From Escherichia phage Ec_Makalu_001: a stretch of DNA of 64,000 nt. Where the stretch lies: sequence record MN894885.1; one strand, given 5' to 3'. Below, piece by piece: positions 13,120 through 17,895 of the stretch. Numbering within the stretch: the stretch's first letter is position 1; each line of letters begins with the position of its first letter. The notes beneath the pieces were generated by a model. That model did not search any database and had not been told where the DNA came from. It worked only from the letters and a program-made list of their open reading frames with translations. A program made the translations under genes and the position numbers.

Positions 13120-15171
13120 TTACATTTTAAATTTATCCGGCATAGCGTCTACAGACACAAGATCAGCGATAAGCTGACGTAGAGTTGCCTTATCTGCTTT
13201 CTTACGTTCGGTTTTAGCTTCGGTAATGAAGCTGGAGAAAGACAGGTCAGAAGCAGGTTTAACAACACCTTCACGGATGAATGCATCACCGTCCGCGATC
13301 ATCTCACCAGATTCTTGTAATGCTGCCAGTTCATTTTTGTTCATAATATGTGCCTCGATGTAATAAGTTTCTTGTGAATCCGTCGATGCCGTAGCACGAG
13401 TTACCGTATCAAAGGATAACACAACACCGCGAGGAAGTAAAATCTCGCATTCTTTGTAAGCAAATGCTTTGTTACCTACTGGCAATACAGGGATGTTTTC
13501 CGCGCCAGCAATGGAGAAAGCAACATTAGCGCCACCTTCACCGCGAGATCCAGCCATAGAATCAACACCAGCAACGGCACTAGCCACGTTTGCATTCCAT
13601 CCACCAAAAATATTAGGTGCAAGGGAAGTGCTCACATAGTTTTTAAAGTAAAACGCTTTTTGCTTACGTGCAGTTTCCCACATTTGAGAACGGAAGTCCA
13701 TACCACGATACAAGATAGTACCTGGATCAAGTTTAACACCATAGTTAGCAAATGCGTTATCCAGTGCATCACACATCTTGACCAATTCTTCTGGGTCTGC
13801 GATGCCTTCAAACTCTTCCAGCTTACGGTCGGTTAGGAAGTTGTTCATATTGATGTATGCTGCATCCGCATATTCGCTCAACACAAAACCTTCCGCGCCA
13901 GGCAGATCAAGATCAATATCTGCCATCATTTCACCCATGTTGCTAGCAATTGCTTCAAACATACCGGAAGCAACATTACGCAGGGCATCGGTTTTAATCT
14001 GCGTGATGTGACTACGCAGCATTTCAGCTTTTACATCTGCTGGCATAGACTGGTCGACGCGATCCATTGCTAGGGCGGTGATCTTGTTTTCAAACACTTC
14101 TTCATTCATGATTTCTTTTAAGCGTTTGATTGATGCTGCGATAACTTCCGCAGACAACGGATCATATTGATCCTGAACTTTTACCAGTTCGCTTACTGCG
14201 TATTTTGCATCGGCTTCGCTTTCAAAAATAGTACGCATGAAACCATAGCGAGTGATAATATCACTTGTCCAGTCATTCAGAGAACGGGCGGTTGAACGTT
14301 CTAAGGCTTGACGGTCAATCAGAGTATTAAACTGTTTCTTAGGTTCTGCTTCGGTGATATCTTCTTCCGGTTTAAGATTAATTTTTTCTGGATGATTCAC
14401 ATAGTCGCTGTTATAGGTCGCTTGAGTTTTCAGCATTTCTTCTTTAGTCAAACGAGATTTAGCCGCTACGCGTTGTTCTGCTTCCGCGTTTCGTTCTTCT
14501 TCTGACACAAGACTAGCCGCATACGCCTCATCTTTAGTCAGAGATTCACCAGTAGCCTTAGATACCCAGCGATCACCTAAATCACTTTCTACTTTAGTGA
14601 ACAGGGATTCATCGAGTTTAATCCCTTTAATCTTATCAATCGCCATCCCGCGACGTTTGACAACAACTAAAGCGATCTTTTTGCTGGTCATTACTTCCTG
14701 CTGGAATACTTCAAACTTCGGTGTACGACGCACCAAACGCTCTATAACGCGCTTAACCAGTTCGGTCTTACCTTTCATGCGGGATACGTTAAAACGGAAC
14801 ATAACAGCGTCTAATTGCGCTTTACGGGCTGTTTCCATAACCACATCAAAAGCACTTGACATAACTGCAATTGGGTTATCTCCTAGACCATTTTTAAGCT
14901 GTACAATACGACCGCTTTTGTTCATTTCGCACAGTACAACATGTGCGGTCTTGTCACCCATACGAATGATTTTAGGTGTTTTGTTGGTGAAGTTACAAAG
15001 ACGGACAATCACATCTTTATCGCGTGTCTGTACTGCAAAAAGCTGTTTAGGATTCTGCTTAGGCTTTAAGCACTGTACCGGAGCAATACTGCCAAAGTTT
15101 TCTTCCTCTTCCGTCAACAGCCATTTCTCGAAAGATTCAATCATTAGATCGTCGATTTCTAAGTTAAACAT
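13120..15171 (-). CDS. alt: Alt ADP-ribosyltransferase (packaged, RNA polymerase-modifying)
   Basis: 683 aa (T4 Alt 682 aa); motifs YRG / YVSTSL / ECEILLPRG; T4 synteny. Confidence 0.85.
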   Translation of the reverse strand: MFNLEIDDLMIESFEKWLLTEEEENFGSIAPVQCLKPKQNPKQLFAVQTRDKDVIVRLCNFTNKTPKIIRMGDKTAHVVLCEMNKSGRIVQLKNGLGDNPIAVMSSAFDVVMETARKAQLDAVMFRFNVSRMKGKTELVKRVIERLVRRTPKFEVFQQEVMTSKKIALVVVKRRGMAIDKIKGIKLDESLFTKVESDLGDRWVSKATGESLTKDEAYAASLVSEEERNAEAEQRVAAKSRLTKEEMLKTQATYNSDYVNHPEKINLKPEEDITEAEPKKQFNTLIDRQALERSTARSLNDWTSDIITRYGFMRTIFESEADAKYAVSELVKVQDQYDPLSAEVIAASIKRLKEIMNEEVFENKITALAMDRVDQSMPADVKAEMLRSHITQIKTDALRNVASGMFEAIASNMGEMMADIDLDLPGAEGFVLSEYADAAYINMNNFLTDRKLEEFEGIADPEELVKMCDALDNAFANYGVKLDPGTILYRGMDFRSQMWETARKQKAFYFKNYVSTSLAPNIFGGWNANVASAVAGVDSMAGSRGEGGANVAFSIAGAENIPVLPVGNKAFAYKECEILLPRGVVLSFDTVTRATASTDSQETYYIEAHIMNKNELAALQESGEMIADGDAFIREGVVKPASDLSFSSFITEAKTERKKADKATLRQLIADLVSVDAMPDKFKM

Positions 15172-15734: not shown

Positions 15735-15763
15735 AGTACAGGGGATCGCCGATCCCCTGTCAA
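15735..15763 (-). promoter_or_regulatory. early sigma70-like promoter, palindromic spacer (TTGACA-GGGGATCGGCGATCCCC-TGTACT)
   Basis: Read on minus strand; -35 consensus, 17-bp inverted-repeat spacer with two GATC, weak -10. Confidence 0.45.
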
Positions 15764-15770
15764 CAACTTT

Positions 15771-16289
15771 TTAGTTATTTTTTAATTGCTCATCTTGCAA
15801 TAGGGCAATCACATGCTGGCGATGTTCTTCCGATTGAGGAACACCGAAAAAGTTTGTTTTGTAGAAATACTCTAATCGGTCTTCTCGTGTGCTCTCTTCC
15901 ATCATGATCGCGGGTAGTCCGAGATTTCGGAAACGTCGCTTTTCTGCTGGCGTAAAATCACTGTAATACAACATAGAATCATCATTACCAGCAATGCTAA
16001 ACTCATCCTTCATAAAGGAGAATATTGCGTTTAAACGCTGTTTACCGTCCACGATTTCGATCTCATAGCGAGAGCCATCATCAATCTTAGCCATTGCGAT
16101 AGCACCAACCGGAAAATCATTAATCAGGTTTTCGATAAACATACGTTTGTTTTCGGTGTCCCATACCAAAGGACGCTGATAATCTGGGTTCATGTTGATA
16201 TAGCCATCTTCTAACCACGCCTCATAAACAGAGATGACAAAGTTTTTAGTATTGGTATAGTAACGGCGTTTAGGCGTTAAACGGTTCAT
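15771..16289 (-). CDS. DUF262 / ParB-like (GmrSD N-terminal type) domain protein
   Basis: Motifs NPDYQRPLVW and IVDGKQRLNAI match the DUF262 signature (xQRxxxW ... DGQQR); start chosen at internal ATG 16287-16289 with AGGAG RBS, overlapping upstream stop. Confidence 0.55.
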   Translation of the reverse strand: MNRLTPKRRYYTNTKNFVISVYEAWLEDGYINMNPDYQRPLVWDTENKRMFIENLINDFPVGAIAMAKIDDGSRYEIEIVDGKQRLNAIFSFMKDEFSIAGNDDSMLYYSDFTPAEKRRFRNLGLPAIMMEESTREDRLEYFYKTNFFGVPQSEEHRQHVIALLQDEQLKNN

Positions 16290-16290
16290 G

Positions 16291-16623
16291 TTATAGTCTC
16301 CTGAATGGATCATCACGTAAATCAATATCTTTTAAGAACTCATCCCATGAATGGCGGATATTGTTCTTAATTCTCCAGATAAGCGCAGGGATTGAACGCT
16401 CTCCCATCTGGAAGTAAGGATCATATGATCCATATGCCCAATATGCTACTACAATTCCACAATCGGCGCAATAATATTCTATTTCACTTGCTGGCGACCA
16501 AAGTCCATCAATATGATCACGGATCTTGCTTTCGATGTTATGGCTATGGCAATCAGGGCAACGGATGCAATGACCTTGTTTATCGTAATTTGACGTTAGC
16601 GAATACTTAAACAATCTCATCAT
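16291..16623 (-). CDS. zinc-ribbon protein (CxxC...CxxC)
   Basis: 110 aa; CIRCPDCHSH ... CADCG; ATGA overlap with upstream gene. Confidence 0.45.
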   Translation of the reverse strand: MMRLFKYSLTSNYDKQGHCIRCPDCHSHNIESKIRDHIDGLWSPASEIEYYCADCGIVVAYWAYGSYDPYFQMGERSIPALIWRIKNNIRHSWDEFLKDIDLRDDPFRRL

Positions 16624-17336
16624 AGATCCTTATTGGCTTCAAATACTGCCTTTGCGAATCCTCGCGGGGTAAGTGACCTGATAGTCTTTGTTCTGGTTCC
16701 TTTCCCGCCTAGCTTAGAATGCTGTTTACTGTACCCTTTATTAATCTGCAACGGTTTCTTTTCTGGCATTATAAAGCCTTGTCCGGTCCATAAGCAAGTC
16801 TTTTTCGGGTACATATCACGGGCGGCAATATACTCAGGAAACGTAGGATGCTTATCATCTTCCGGCAAATAACCGCCATATTCCCACGGATGGAACATGT
16901 AATCAGGCTTACGCCACATGCTAGAGATAACGCTTACAGGATTCTCTATCATGTAGGGAACTCCTAGCCATTCACCCAAATAAGCGGTTATTTTAGCTGC
17001 CCTTACATCATGAACTTGAATTAATGGTCCTTGTTCTCGTTTCTTTCGTTCAAAGTGCGCAGCGCCACTAACAGCTAAATTGGTGCATGGTGGGAATGCA
17101 AAGATAATATCCGGTTTCCCCCATTCAAGGTCCATTGCTCTTTCCAGCCAATTTAAATCAATCCATGTGTTTACATATGTAATGTTTGGATGTTCAAATC
17201 GGGTATTATATTTTTTGTATGTACCGTGGTCGCCATCGTCAGCATTAAAGCAGATCACCTTATGACCTGCTTTAGCCCATTCTAACCCCATTATCCCCGA
17301 TCCGTCAAAGTTGCAGAATATTAATTTTTGTTTCAT
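16620..17336 (-). CDS. putative DNA (cytosine-5) methyltransferase-like protein (short)
   Basis: 238 aa; motif I-like FCNFDGSG, motif IV-like FAFPPCTNLAVSG (Pro-Cys), motif VI-like MIENP; no clear motif VIII/X. Confidence 0.4.
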   Translation of the reverse strand: MKQKLIFCNFDGSGIMGLEWAKAGHKVICFNADDGDHGTYKKYNTRFEHPNITYVNTWIDLNWLERAMDLEWGKPDIIFAFPPCTNLAVSGAAHFERKKREQGPLIQVHDVRAAKITAYLGEWLGVPYMIENPVSVISSMWRKPDYMFHPWEYGGYLPEDDKHPTFPEYIAARDMYPKKTCLWTGQGFIMPEKKPLQINKGYSKQHSKLGGKGTRTKTIRSLTPRGFAKAVFEANKDL

Positions 17337-17578
17337 ATACGCCCCTTTAACCCAACACAGATTTTAGAAGGTTCTTTGCCGTGCCACATTAAGTAAATTC
17401 CGTTAATGCGTCCTTGTTTTGTATATGATTCTTTTCTGATCTTCTTATAGTGTCGTGCTTCCTCAGCCGATTGTTTAGAATGTCGATCATAAAGGAAGAG
17501 GAACAAAGGCCAACCATTAGCGGCCTTAATGCAGTTATTCAAAAATTCCTTATTTCGTTTAATTAATTTTCTTTTCAC
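17333..17578 (-). CDS. hypothetical basic protein (81 aa)
   Basis: ATGA overlap on both sides; member of the coupled cassette. Confidence 0.4.
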   Translation of the reverse strand: MKRKLIKRNKEFLNNCIKAANGWPLFLFLYDRHSKQSAEEARHYKKIRKESYTKQGRINGIYLMWHGKEPSKICVGLKGRI

Positions 17579-17826
17579 GCTGCCCCCATTGGTTTGATAG
17601 TAACAGAATCTAAAAGACCTTTGTTAGCCAGTTCGCGGCAAGTTTTCAGATCCGCAACTTCCCAGCCAGCCGCAATAAGGTTATCAATGAGGCTGTTAGC
17701 AACTTCTTCGCTCATGAAAGAGCACTGTTTGCCGATGGTGTAGCGTACACGCTGTAATTTCAGTTTACGGAAGCCTTTAACGTTCAGGTCTTTAGCGATT
17801 TTCTTTGCGGTTTCGATGTTAGCCAT
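17575..17826 (-). CDS. hypothetical protein (83 aa), first gene of coupled cassette
   Basis: RBS GGAGAATCA; promoter 17867-17895 upstream. Confidence 0.45.
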   Translation of the reverse strand: MANIETAKKIAKDLNVKGFRKLKLQRVRYTIGKQCSFMSEEVANSLIDNLIAAGWEVADLKTCRELANKGLLDSVTIKPMGAA

Positions 17827-17866
17827 TGTTTGATTCTCCTAAGTGGTATCTCGTCTTGATGGTTGT

Positions 17867-17895
17867 ATTGTAGGGGAGTTATCCTCCCCTGTCAA
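17867..17895 (-). promoter_or_regulatory. early sigma70-like promoter, palindromic spacer (TTGACA-GGGGAGGATAACTCCCC-TACAAT); drives 5-gene cassette
   Basis: Minus-strand -35/-10 with 17-bp inverted-repeat spacer, A-rich UP region. Confidence 0.55.

Follow-up and report, generated by a model that had tools for sequence, protein, structure and literature searches.

Does the block of five small genes on the minus strand of Escherichia phage Ec_Makalu_001 (record MN894885.1) encode a new DNA-modification or DNA-sensing system? An earlier note, made from the letters of a 64,000-nucleotide stretch of this genome (the window), had proposed as much. The window belongs to a Krischvirus, an RB49-like coliphage, and shares 99.8% identity with Ec_Makalu_002. 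Here we examine the layout of the block, the fold and family of each product, and the company that each gene keeps in other genomes.

Gene layout and borders

Reading of the sequence agreed with the earlier description of five minus-strand ORFs linked by start/stop overlaps behind a single promoter (Table 1). The junctions, in gene order, are GTGA, ATGA, ATGA and TAAcATG, the last leaving a 1-nt gap, and a Shine-Dalgarno-like purine run precedes every one of the five starts. The reading frame of the last gene begins at an ATG downstream of AGGAG; a longer 184-aa ORF with a TTG start was set aside, as it differs from the annotated form. Four-base overlaps are the rule between adjoining early genes of T4-like phages, and thus do not single this block out. 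Instead of the stoichiometric co-expression that had been deduced from them, the overlaps would reflect how tightly genes are usually packed in the early regions of T4-like phages, and not a complex of fixed stoichiometry.

Table 1. Features of the five-gene block and its borders, in window coordinates
Feature	Position	Strand	Remarks
PeSL-type early promoter TTGACA-17 nt-TACAAT	17867..17895	-	11/12 consensus matches; drives five genes
83-aa ORF	17575..17826	-	gene 1 of five-gene block
81-aa ORF, GTG start	17333..17578	-	gene 2 of five-gene block
238-aa compact Dcm-like DNA cytosine-C5 methyltransferase (predicted)	16620..17336	-	gene 3 of five-gene block
110-aa zinc-ribbon protein	16291..16623	-	gene 4 of five-gene block
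172-aa stand-alone mini ParB-DUF262 protein	15771..16289	-	gene 5 of five-gene block
Downstream PeSL: TTGACA, GGGGATCGGCGATCCCC hairpin, weak -10 TGTACT	15735..15763	-	sequence reading

The block sits in a region already known as hyperplastic, with a PeSL element (promoter plus stem-loop) on either side. The spacer of the upstream promoter forms a GGGGAG...CTCCCC G/C hairpin, and this composite promoter/hairpin pattern occurs twice in the window against zero expected. A consensus scan yielded 8 sigma-70-like sites versus 7.8 in shuffled sequences, and the promoter is credible only through its PeSL context. A further sigma-70-like site inside the block, at 17308-17279 (10/12), is taken as a chance match, given that shuffled sequences yield just as many sites. 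The downstream PeSL, which the same scan did not pick up, bounds the block and is likely an attenuator or terminator as well as the promoter of the next gene, of 59 aa. Both elements carry a promoter annotation in the GEC-3S record. PeSL elements have been described before, and the terminator function of their stem-loops was tested in that work (PMC2839356). The block thus shows what characterizes a PeSL-bounded cassette, namely a promoter with a stem-loop at the borders and indels between relatives.

The 238-aa protein has a C5-methyltransferase fold

The 238-aa protein contains motif I (FDGSG, residues 10-14), which serves AdoMet binding in C5-methyltransferases, motif IV (PPCT, residues 82-85, with the catalytic C84), motif VI (ENP, residues 131-133), whose glutamate contacts the target cytosine in that family, and the pair K178K179; motifs I, IV and VI are invariant in an alignment of 37 family members. 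The earlier note had recognized these three motifs, and this part stands, but its statement that C-terminal motifs are not recognizable does not, as the invariant IRSLTPRG (residues 219-226) resembles motif IX. Against Pfam PF00145, the protein scores 13.9 bits over residues 10-100 only, below the 22-bit cut-off. PDB searches by sequence and by family profile returned no methyltransferase match for this protein and nothing useful for either this or the 172-aa protein, so that a fold comparison was needed. The predicted fold is of the DNMT3/M.HhaI type, the catalytic-domain fold common to solved C5-methyltransferases. Motif alignment and fold comparison together support the proposed C5-cytosine methyltransferase fold with its catalytic motifs.

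Phages encode a very large family of Dcm-like C5-cytosine methyltransferases of ~230 aa (PHROG 757), of which the protein is a member; lengths run from 219 to 259 aa in the 120 top-scoring homologues listed. Between W141-R142 in the motif VI/VIII region and IRSLTPRG lie ~75 conserved residues, and the large target-recognition domain is absent. Over its full length, the protein is 56% identical to the 236-aa Dcm-like protein of phage Bas06 KarlJaspers. Phage K42 is closely related to Bas06 and has a dcm gene of the same length (711 bp); its Dcm is reported to yield 5mC by LC-MS and to trigger retron Ec86, and the quadruple mutant C82A/E128A/K175A/K176A to lose the phenotype (bioRxiv 10.1101/2023.08.16.553469). 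The mutated residues correspond to C84, E131, K178 and K179 of the 238-aa protein.

We propose that the 238-aa protein is probably an orphan DNA methyltransferase, active on cytosine C5 and dependent on SAM, whose target-recognition region is minimal and DNMT3-like. Made early, it would methylate a sparse motif, probably CCWGG, as assumed for the K42 homologue. Such methylation would protect the phage against cognate (EcoRII-type) restriction in dcm-negative hosts, at the possible cost of triggering methylation-sensing defences.

The 172-aa protein is a stand-alone DUF262 protein

The 172-aa protein matches Pfam GmrSD_N (DUF262, PF03235) with an E-value of 4e-20 and 73.2 bits against a cut-off of 33.2, and has all three DUF262 motifs: Q38R39xxxW43 (in DYQRPLVW), D81GKQR85 (in VDGKQRL) and F142xxxN146 (in FYKTN). 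The second of these, D81-G-K-Q-R85, is near-invariant in the mini-DUF262 family, whose members are ~155-190 aa long. The AF2 model has a pLDDT of 95.5, and Foldseek search with it gave a probability of 1.0 to CTP-bound ParB, Noc, PadC and KorB, with a modest best E-value of 6.5e-4, in addition to matches with BrxU and sulfiredoxin. Pfam, AF2 and Foldseek therefore confirm the DUF262/ParB fold that had been suggested from the motifs. The PADLOC entry that it matches best is NsnA, the sensor of Menshen (E 1e-20). The gene is under purifying selection, with a pN/pS of 0.08-0.12. The short form is common in phage contigs, compared to cellular relatives of mostly 380-1000 aa, and the stand-alone phage family has hundreds of representatives at 50% clustering.

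Pfam search for a nuclease domain (DUF1524/HNH) revealed no second domain in the protein, which ends at residue 172. No GmrD gene adjoins it, the downstream gene being the 59-aa ORF beyond the PeSL. The DUF262 core spans residues 37-146, and what remains is too short for a ParBDB DNA-binding domain. Lacking a nuclease and an extra DNA-binding domain, the protein cannot be a GmrSD-type restriction enzyme. It would rather be a nucleotide-binding ParB/DUF262 module that most likely works by itself and independently of the methyltransferase, as a regulator or counter-defence protein of small size that binds DNA or protein in an NTP-dependent manner.

The 83-, 81- and 110-aa proteins

The 83-aa protein (PHROG 14908, of unknown function) is a Krischvirus-only ORFan: all 56 records matched by tblastn are at least 95% identical, and the pN/pS is 0-0.15. 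The basic 81-aa protein (PHROG 7065), whose GTG start overlaps the upstream stop, diverges more than its neighbours, with 86-99% identity within the genus and a pN/pS of 0.28-0.39; distant homologues occur in other phage records, in genomes of T4 size and of ~100-120 kb. Neither phage E26 nor one of the Krischvirus contigs in IMG/VR has its gene, which is dispensable.

The 110-aa protein (PHROG 2993) is a zinc ribbon, as the earlier note had called it, with the pattern CPDC...CADC (C22PDC25 and C52ADC55); its match to Pfam Zn_Ribbon_TF (E 4e-4) falls below the cut-off. Its homologues in 9g-like, Felixounavirus and GAP227-like phages sit among DNA-metabolism genes, with no annotated methyltransferase or DUF262 gene within 4 kb. 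In RB16 and PMBT1, a gene of ~109 aa stands ahead of the DUF262 homologue; it was considered as a zinc-ribbon counterpart and rejected, for it has no CxxC zinc-knuckle and no similarity. NCBIfam gave no match for any of the five proteins.

The five genes occur together only in Krischvirus

The cassette genes are absent from T4, as had been noted, but the block is not new to the databases: it is annotated in the records of RB49, Phi1 and GEC-3S, with the same gene order and high identity. The order methyltransferase/zinc-ribbon/DUF262 is kept in essentially all Krischvirus genomes, and of the 63 records with a match, 55 span the region to 80% or more. All five genes occur together only within this genus, at about 97-100% DNA identity, so that their co-conservation is no independent evidence. 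The earlier note had let its proposal hinge on the set being conserved together in related phages; the linkage found is confined to Krischvirus.

Outside the genus, each gene has its own phyletic range. A second cassette gene was found within ±10 kb at none of 78 non-Krischvirus viral DUF262 loci and none of 78 non-Krischvirus viral Dcm-like loci, nor within ±8 kb at any of 80 genomic DUF262 loci; the latter came from a narrow-alignment profile scan of genome contigs, a single-protein scan having found no relative. Likewise, no two cassette genes stand together at nine hand-picked phage or contig loci, and no DNA-methylase is among the 25 most frequent Pfam families of 98 mini-DUF262 neighbours at 20 dereplicated viral loci. 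Gene content also varies within the genus, where E26 has lost the 81-aa gene and kaaroe has gained an extra ORF between the zinc-ribbon and DUF262 genes. Synonymous divergence is unequal along the block (small counts), which suggests a mosaic history. As a counterweight, all cassette genes are under purifying selection, which together with the fixed order of the trio is compatible with a functional link, though not evidence for one.

Altogether, the idea of a new functional system made up of all five genes is not supported, as they never occur together outside Krischvirus and vary in content within it. Early blocks such as this one, built from independently mobile genes, are ordinary in RB49-type coliphages, and a new multi-protein system is not demonstrable. 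It is probably one early Krischvirus transcription unit, PeSL-bounded and lying in the hyperplastic region, made up of five accessory genes with separate origins.

Alternative functions of the block

One alternative is that the mini-DUF262 protein is a counter-defence decoy or dominant-negative partner that shields a methyltransferase-carrying phage from methylation-sensing immunity. It would act as a nuclease-free copy of the sensor/NTPase domain with which host systems recognize modified DNA, among them GmrSD/BrxU, Dazbog DzbA, SspE and Menshen NsnA. The protein keeps the three motifs with the effector absent, its best defence-library match is a sensor, the DUF262 domain of BrxU matches its model by Foldseek, and its gene is driven by an early promoter; the abundance of the short form in phage contigs points the same way. 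Moreover, phage cytosine methylases trigger the DUF262-containing Dazbog (bioRxiv 10.1101/2022.08.27.505566) as well as retron Ec86. Against it, sequence identity to the host sensors is low, and a literature search found neither a function nor an experiment for any phage DUF262-only protein. In addition, no Dcm-like methyltransferase lies within 3.5-10 kb of the homologues that RB16-like, Slopekvirus and ST64B-type phages carry, so that a methyltransferase-shielding logic is not general. We regard the decoy as unlikely. A broader version, in which the early mini-DUF262 protein, either alone or with the help of the zinc ribbon, neutralizes cytosine-methylation-sensing or DUF262-sensor immunity (BrxU/GmrSD, Dazbog, Menshen, retron Ec86), is distinctly unlikely. 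RB49 is routinely propagated on E. coli B (PMC4041780), and the E. coli B derivative BL21(DE3) has a native retron Ec86 (bioRxiv 10.1101/2023.08.16.553469). If true, the broader version would let the phage keep a Dcm-like methyltransferase without being given away by it, and would represent a new anti-defence class built from the defence systems' own sensor domain.

A second alternative joins the methyltransferase, zinc-ribbon and DUF262 proteins into one machine. The methyltransferase, whose own target-recognition domain is nearly absent, would depend on the other two proteins for being loaded onto DNA or for finding its target. Such a machine would fit the constant gene order and close coupling seen in Krischvirus, as well as the short stretch between the motif VI/VIII and IX-like regions of the methyltransferase, and fusions of a ParB-type N-domain with a DNA methyltransferase occur in mobile elements. 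It is nevertheless very unlikely, since no zinc-ribbon or DUF262 gene lies within 3-10 kb of the methyltransferase at 78 non-Krischvirus viral loci and in four phage records (T1-like, rV5-like and T7-like), and the extra ORF of kaaroe separates two of the three genes. Furthermore, the K42 homologue is active alone from a plasmid (bioRxiv 10.1101/2023.08.16.553469).

Cytosine modification in Krischvirus DNA

DNA of phage TB34, in which the cassette is present, has no modified nucleoside by bulk HPLC/MS (PMC13390438), and HpaII and NheI cut RB49 DNA (PMC4041780). Extrapolation from the CCWGG density of the window gives ~0.2% of cytosines methylated, a fraction that might escape bulk HPLC, so that these data are compatible with sparse methylation. 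CCWGG sites number 24 in the window against ~65 expected, a ~2.7-fold depletion, which counts against full protection because fully protected sites would make depletion unnecessary.

The Krischvirus SAP is reported to contain 5-hmdC/glucosyl-type bases without a dCMP hydroxymethylase, by an unknown pathway (PMC13390438). That the C5-methyltransferase-fold enzyme, the only recognizable cytosine-C5-directed enzyme in the region, installs a non-methyl group or starts the DNA-level hypermodification behind these bases is extremely unlikely, given that the modified SAP and the unmodified TB34 do not differ in any of the five coding sequences, that the K42 homologue yields 5mC, that HpaII cuts RB49 DNA and that the genus has no known TET or glycosyltransferase partner (PMC13390438). 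Locally, SAP and TB34 differ only by a 79-bp PeSL insertion downstream and a 1-bp intergenic indel. The identity of the coding sequences also excludes the cassette as the sole cause of the difference in modification; by itself, it cannot explain it.

Implications and comparison with known systems

With the block read as independent accessory genes, the finding chiefly tidies annotation and is of modest relevance to work on phage therapy and on defence. In RB49-type phages, the label "hypothetical" of the 238-aa gene can give way to predicted Dcm-like C5-cytosine methyltransferase, a relative of which has been studied experimentally, and the 172-aa gene can be called a ParB-DUF262 protein that lacks a nuclease, not a restriction enzyme. 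Krischviruses are therapy candidates, and a phage cytosine methylase can guard against restriction yet trigger abortive-infection systems, retron Ec86 and Dazbog being examples. Of mild interest in the block is only the stand-alone mini-DUF262 protein, whose phage family is a reasonable candidate for anti-defence screens.

Among known systems, the 238-aa protein resembles the Dcm of Bas06 and K42 in length class (236 versus 238 aa), in its catalytic or binding C, E and KK residues, in the DNMT3-like predicted fold and in being encoded by an orphan gene within an early or DNA-metabolism region. However, its carrier is a T4-like myovirus instead of a T1-like siphovirus, and its gene is flanked by zinc-ribbon and DUF262 genes, an arrangement unique to Krischvirus. 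Compared to M.HhaI, M.HaeIII and DNMT3A/B (PF00145), it is ~100 residues shorter and lacks a separate large target-recognition domain, although its short target-recognition region resembles that of DNMT3; motif IV reads PCT, not PCQ, and motif VI ENP, not ENV, as in canonical C5-methyltransferases.

The 172-aa protein shares the ParB/Srx-fold DUF262 domain with QRxxxW, DGxQR and FxxxN motifs with GmrSD/BrxU, SspE, Dazbog DzbA and Menshen NsnA. It differs from GmrSD/BrxU and other DUF262 sensors in its small size, in the absence of a DUF1524/HNH nuclease, of a ParBDB and of an adjoining partner ATPase or effector gene, and in being phage-encoded and early-expressed. As for the block as a whole, it is most similar to the PeSL-flanked ORFan cassettes of RB49 and phi1 (Arbiol et al. 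2010, PMC2839356): at either border stands a strong early promoter of the sigma-70 type in which a G/C stem-loop is embedded, the region holds small non-essential genes, and the indels of relatives (E26, kaaroe and SAP) fall at PeSL elements. In contrast to the single-ORFan cassettes, it comprises five genes, two of whose products have recognizable enzymatic folds.

Gene organization and promoter elements of the five-gene block

ORF calls and reading of the sequence confirmed five minus-strand ORFs with the sizes and junctions described in an earlier note, as well as their promoter, which matches the consensus at 11 of 12 positions. This promoter is a promoter-early stem-loop (PeSL), an element known from RB49/phi1, in which the stem-loops also end transcription and mediate the shuffling of genes as modules within hyperplastic regions (PMC2839356). 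A generic promoter scan of the window gave a site count not above that of shuffled sequences. A stoichiometric unit was once deduced from the start/stop overlaps, but 4-base overlaps are commonplace between neighbouring early genes in this phage and other T4-like phages, and coupling alone is therefore no sign of a complex. A further PeSL on the same strand at 22569-22540 (TTGACAGGGGAGGTTAAACTCCCCTATAAT) is near-identical to the promoter of the block, and the two could potentially recombine with each other.

Features of the five-gene block and its surroundings (window coordinates unless stated)
Feature	Position	Strand	Details
Junction of 83-aa and 81-aa genes			GTGA
Junction of 81-aa and 238-aa genes			ATGA
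Junction of 238-aa and 110-aa genes			ATGA
Junction of 110-aa and 172-aa genes			TAAcATG
83-aa gene	17575-17826	-	
81-aa gene	17333-17578	-	
PeSL promoter of the block	17895-17867	-	TTGACA-17-TACAAT; G/C hairpin in spacer
Downstream PeSL	15763-15735	-	weaker -10; 3' of the last (172-aa) gene
Alt-like ADP-ribosyltransferase counterpart	13120-15171		683-aa ORF
Extra PeSL unit of SAP	SAP locus 455-533 (window ~15735-15770)		79 bp; directly 3' of the DUF262 stop codon

The 2.6 kb around the block share 99.8% identity with Escherichia phage Ec_Makalu_002, and 97-98% with RB49, Phi1, GEC-3S, TB34 and about 50 other Krischvirus (RB49-like, "pseudo-T-even") coliphages. The GEC-3S record annotates these five CDSs too, with a promoter on either side of them, and two small genes and an Alt-like ADP-ribosyltransferase gene follow just downstream. 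The locus is not new, being already present and annotated in public genomes, and its PeSL context is already published.

The 172-aa protein is a nuclease-less DUF262 module

The 172-aa protein matches Pfam GmrSD_N/DUF262 with 73 bits, and contains all three DUF262 motifs of the literature, QRxxxW, DGxQR and FxxxN (PMC12065111), which are invariant or near-invariant across 41 aligned short homologues. Its very confident predicted model (pLDDT 95.5) structurally resembles CTP-bound ParB, Noc, PadC, KorB, BrxU and sulfiredoxin. The DUF262 assignment thus stands, but not that of a GmrSD-type enzyme, since we found neither a second domain nor a nuclease in the protein, and no adjacent effector gene. 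In an exhaustive HMMER scan for relatives of this mini-DUF262 protein, 447 cluster representatives reached E<=1e-10, and many of them are 155-190 aa long; in a second, large class of ~250-290 aa the module is C-terminal, following an N-terminal region of ~120-150 aa that has no Pfam match. Among phage records, homologues sharing 35-39% identity come from RB16-like phages, Slopekvirus, Cronobacter and Pectobacterium T4-like phages and prophage ST64B, and the relatives retrieved from cellular genomes are mostly of 380-1000 aa.

A literature search found no function for the nuclease-less phage family. We propose that the 172-aa protein would work alone as an NTP-binding ParB-DUF262 module, most plausibly in a regulatory or counter-defence role. 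PADLOC ranks NsnA, the Menshen sensor, first (1e-20) and PD-T4-2_A second. The main rival, that it interferes with host DUF262 sensors as a decoy or dominant-negative, appears unlikely.

The 238-aa protein belongs to the Dcm-like methyltransferases

Against Pfam DNA_methylase, the 238-aa protein gave only an N-terminal, sub-threshold match (E 0.037), whereas PHROG 757 "DNA methyltransferase" covers it end to end (2e-90). A large protein database holds 7317 homologues, of which the best 120 are 219-259 aa long. The previously noted motifs I, IV and VI were borne out as the invariant blocks FxGSG, PPCT and ENP, alongside WR and YxKxT; the reported lack of C-terminal motifs is not quite right, as IRSL(T)xRG is also invariant. 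AlphaFold gave a confident model (pLDDT 91). Sequence and profile searches of the PDB found nothing, which argues for a divergent family with a minimal target-recognition region.

This family already has a studied member. The 238-aa protein shares 56% identity (E 4e-92) with the product of the 711-bp "Dcm-like" gene of phage KarlJaspers/Bas06, to which phage K42 is near-identical. According to a preprint (bioRxiv 10.1101/2023.08.16.553469), the mutations by which K42 escapes retron Ec86 lie in this gene, and expressing it alone is enough to trigger Ec86; LC-MS detected 5mC in msDNA, which was gone in the C82A/E128A/K175A/K176A mutant. All four residues are conserved, as C84, E131, K178 and K179. 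Strong purifying selection acts on the 238-aa gene in Krischvirus (pN/pS 0.03-0.04), and solitary homologues occur in T1-like, rV5-like, T7-like, Dhillonvirus and other phages.

HpaII and NheI cut RB49 DNA (PMC4041780), and TB34 shows no modified nucleoside by HPLC/MS (PMC13390438), so global or CCGG methylation is excluded. CCWGG occurs 24 times in the 64-kb window against ~65 expected; at this density across the whole genome, methylation specific to CCWGG would mark roughly 0.2% of cytosines, probably too few for bulk HPLC to show. In the same window, GAATTC is missing (~18-20 expected), GGCC occurs 35 times (75-106 expected) and CCNGG 34 times (~100 expected), and GATC is not depleted; with CCWGG, these counts represent restriction-site avoidance.

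The small genes of the block

The 110-aa protein carries zinc knuckles (CPDC...CADC), and its homologues sit among DNA-metabolism genes of 9g-like, Felixounavirus and GAP227-like phages. Distant homologues of the basic 81-aa protein turn up in further phage records, with genomes of T4 size and of ~100-120 kb. Across Krischvirus the protein retains 86-99% aa identity, compared to 97-100% for the products of neighbouring genes, with a pN/pS of 0.28-0.39, and its gene is cleanly deleted in E26 and one IMG/VR contig. The 83-aa protein occurs only in Krischvirus. Its residues 12-75 weakly match (E 2.6e-5) positions 722-785 of the PADLOC model UG35, a defence-associated reverse transcriptase, which may be chance or a small shared domain.

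The five genes do not form a conserved unit outside Krischvirus

The earlier note had considered the block a possible new system, which the distribution of its genes does not bear out. At 80 IMG/VR mini-DUF262 loci (+/-10 kb), the methyltransferase, Zn-ribbon, 81- or 83-aa genes were present only in two Krischvirus contigs, and the closest 80 Dcm-like loci had other cassette genes only in the same two. None of 80 bacterial/archaeal DUF262 loci, nor any individually inspected locus, had another cassette gene. In a Pfam census of 98 proteins of at least 150 aa within 3 kb of mini-DUF262 genes at 20 dereplicated viral loci, the neighbours include integrases, poly(A) polymerase-like proteins, ClpP, HD and ABC-type ATPases, and DNA methylase is not among the 25 commonest families. 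Within the genus, an additional 59-aa ORF separates the Zn-ribbon gene from the DUF262 gene in kaaroe (1090-1269 of the locus examined), and synonymous divergence differs several-fold between cassette genes, suggesting a mosaic history. The findings are consistent with unrelated accessory genes having been assembled through PeSLs, and not with a co-evolving five-gene system; that the products build a composite methyltransferase machine is quite improbable. The kaaroe record leaves the counterpart region of the 81-aa gene unannotated and annotates the Dcm gene shorter.

The Krischvirus phages SAP and TB34 are reported to be 99.96% identical, with cytosines hypermodified in the former and canonical in the latter (PMC13390438). 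Their cassette coding sequences are identical, which counts against a role in non-methyl modification, a highly implausible reading. Over the 3-kb region, they differ only by the extra PeSL unit of SAP and a 1-bp intergenic indel. This insertion accounts for 79 of the 112 bp of genome-length difference, and might escape a SNP caller.

Proposed mechanism and comparison with known systems

We propose that early sigma-70 transcription from the PeSL would produce one mRNA encoding five independent products. The 238-aa enzyme would be an autonomous orphan C5-methyltransferase with a sparse target motif, which may help the phage to evade restriction and, as a known liability, may trigger methylation-sensing defences. 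The advance is limited: Krischvirus genes are placed in the methyltransferase and DUF262 families on fold-level evidence, and nuclease-less phage DUF262 proteins are recognized as a sizeable family.

Some phage-contig relatives of the mini-DUF262 protein adjoin genes for AAA_15/AAA_21/AAA_23/SMC_N-type ATPases. ATPases of this type are the partners in Menshen or PD-T4-2-like defence systems, a hint that such systems are encoded by some phages.
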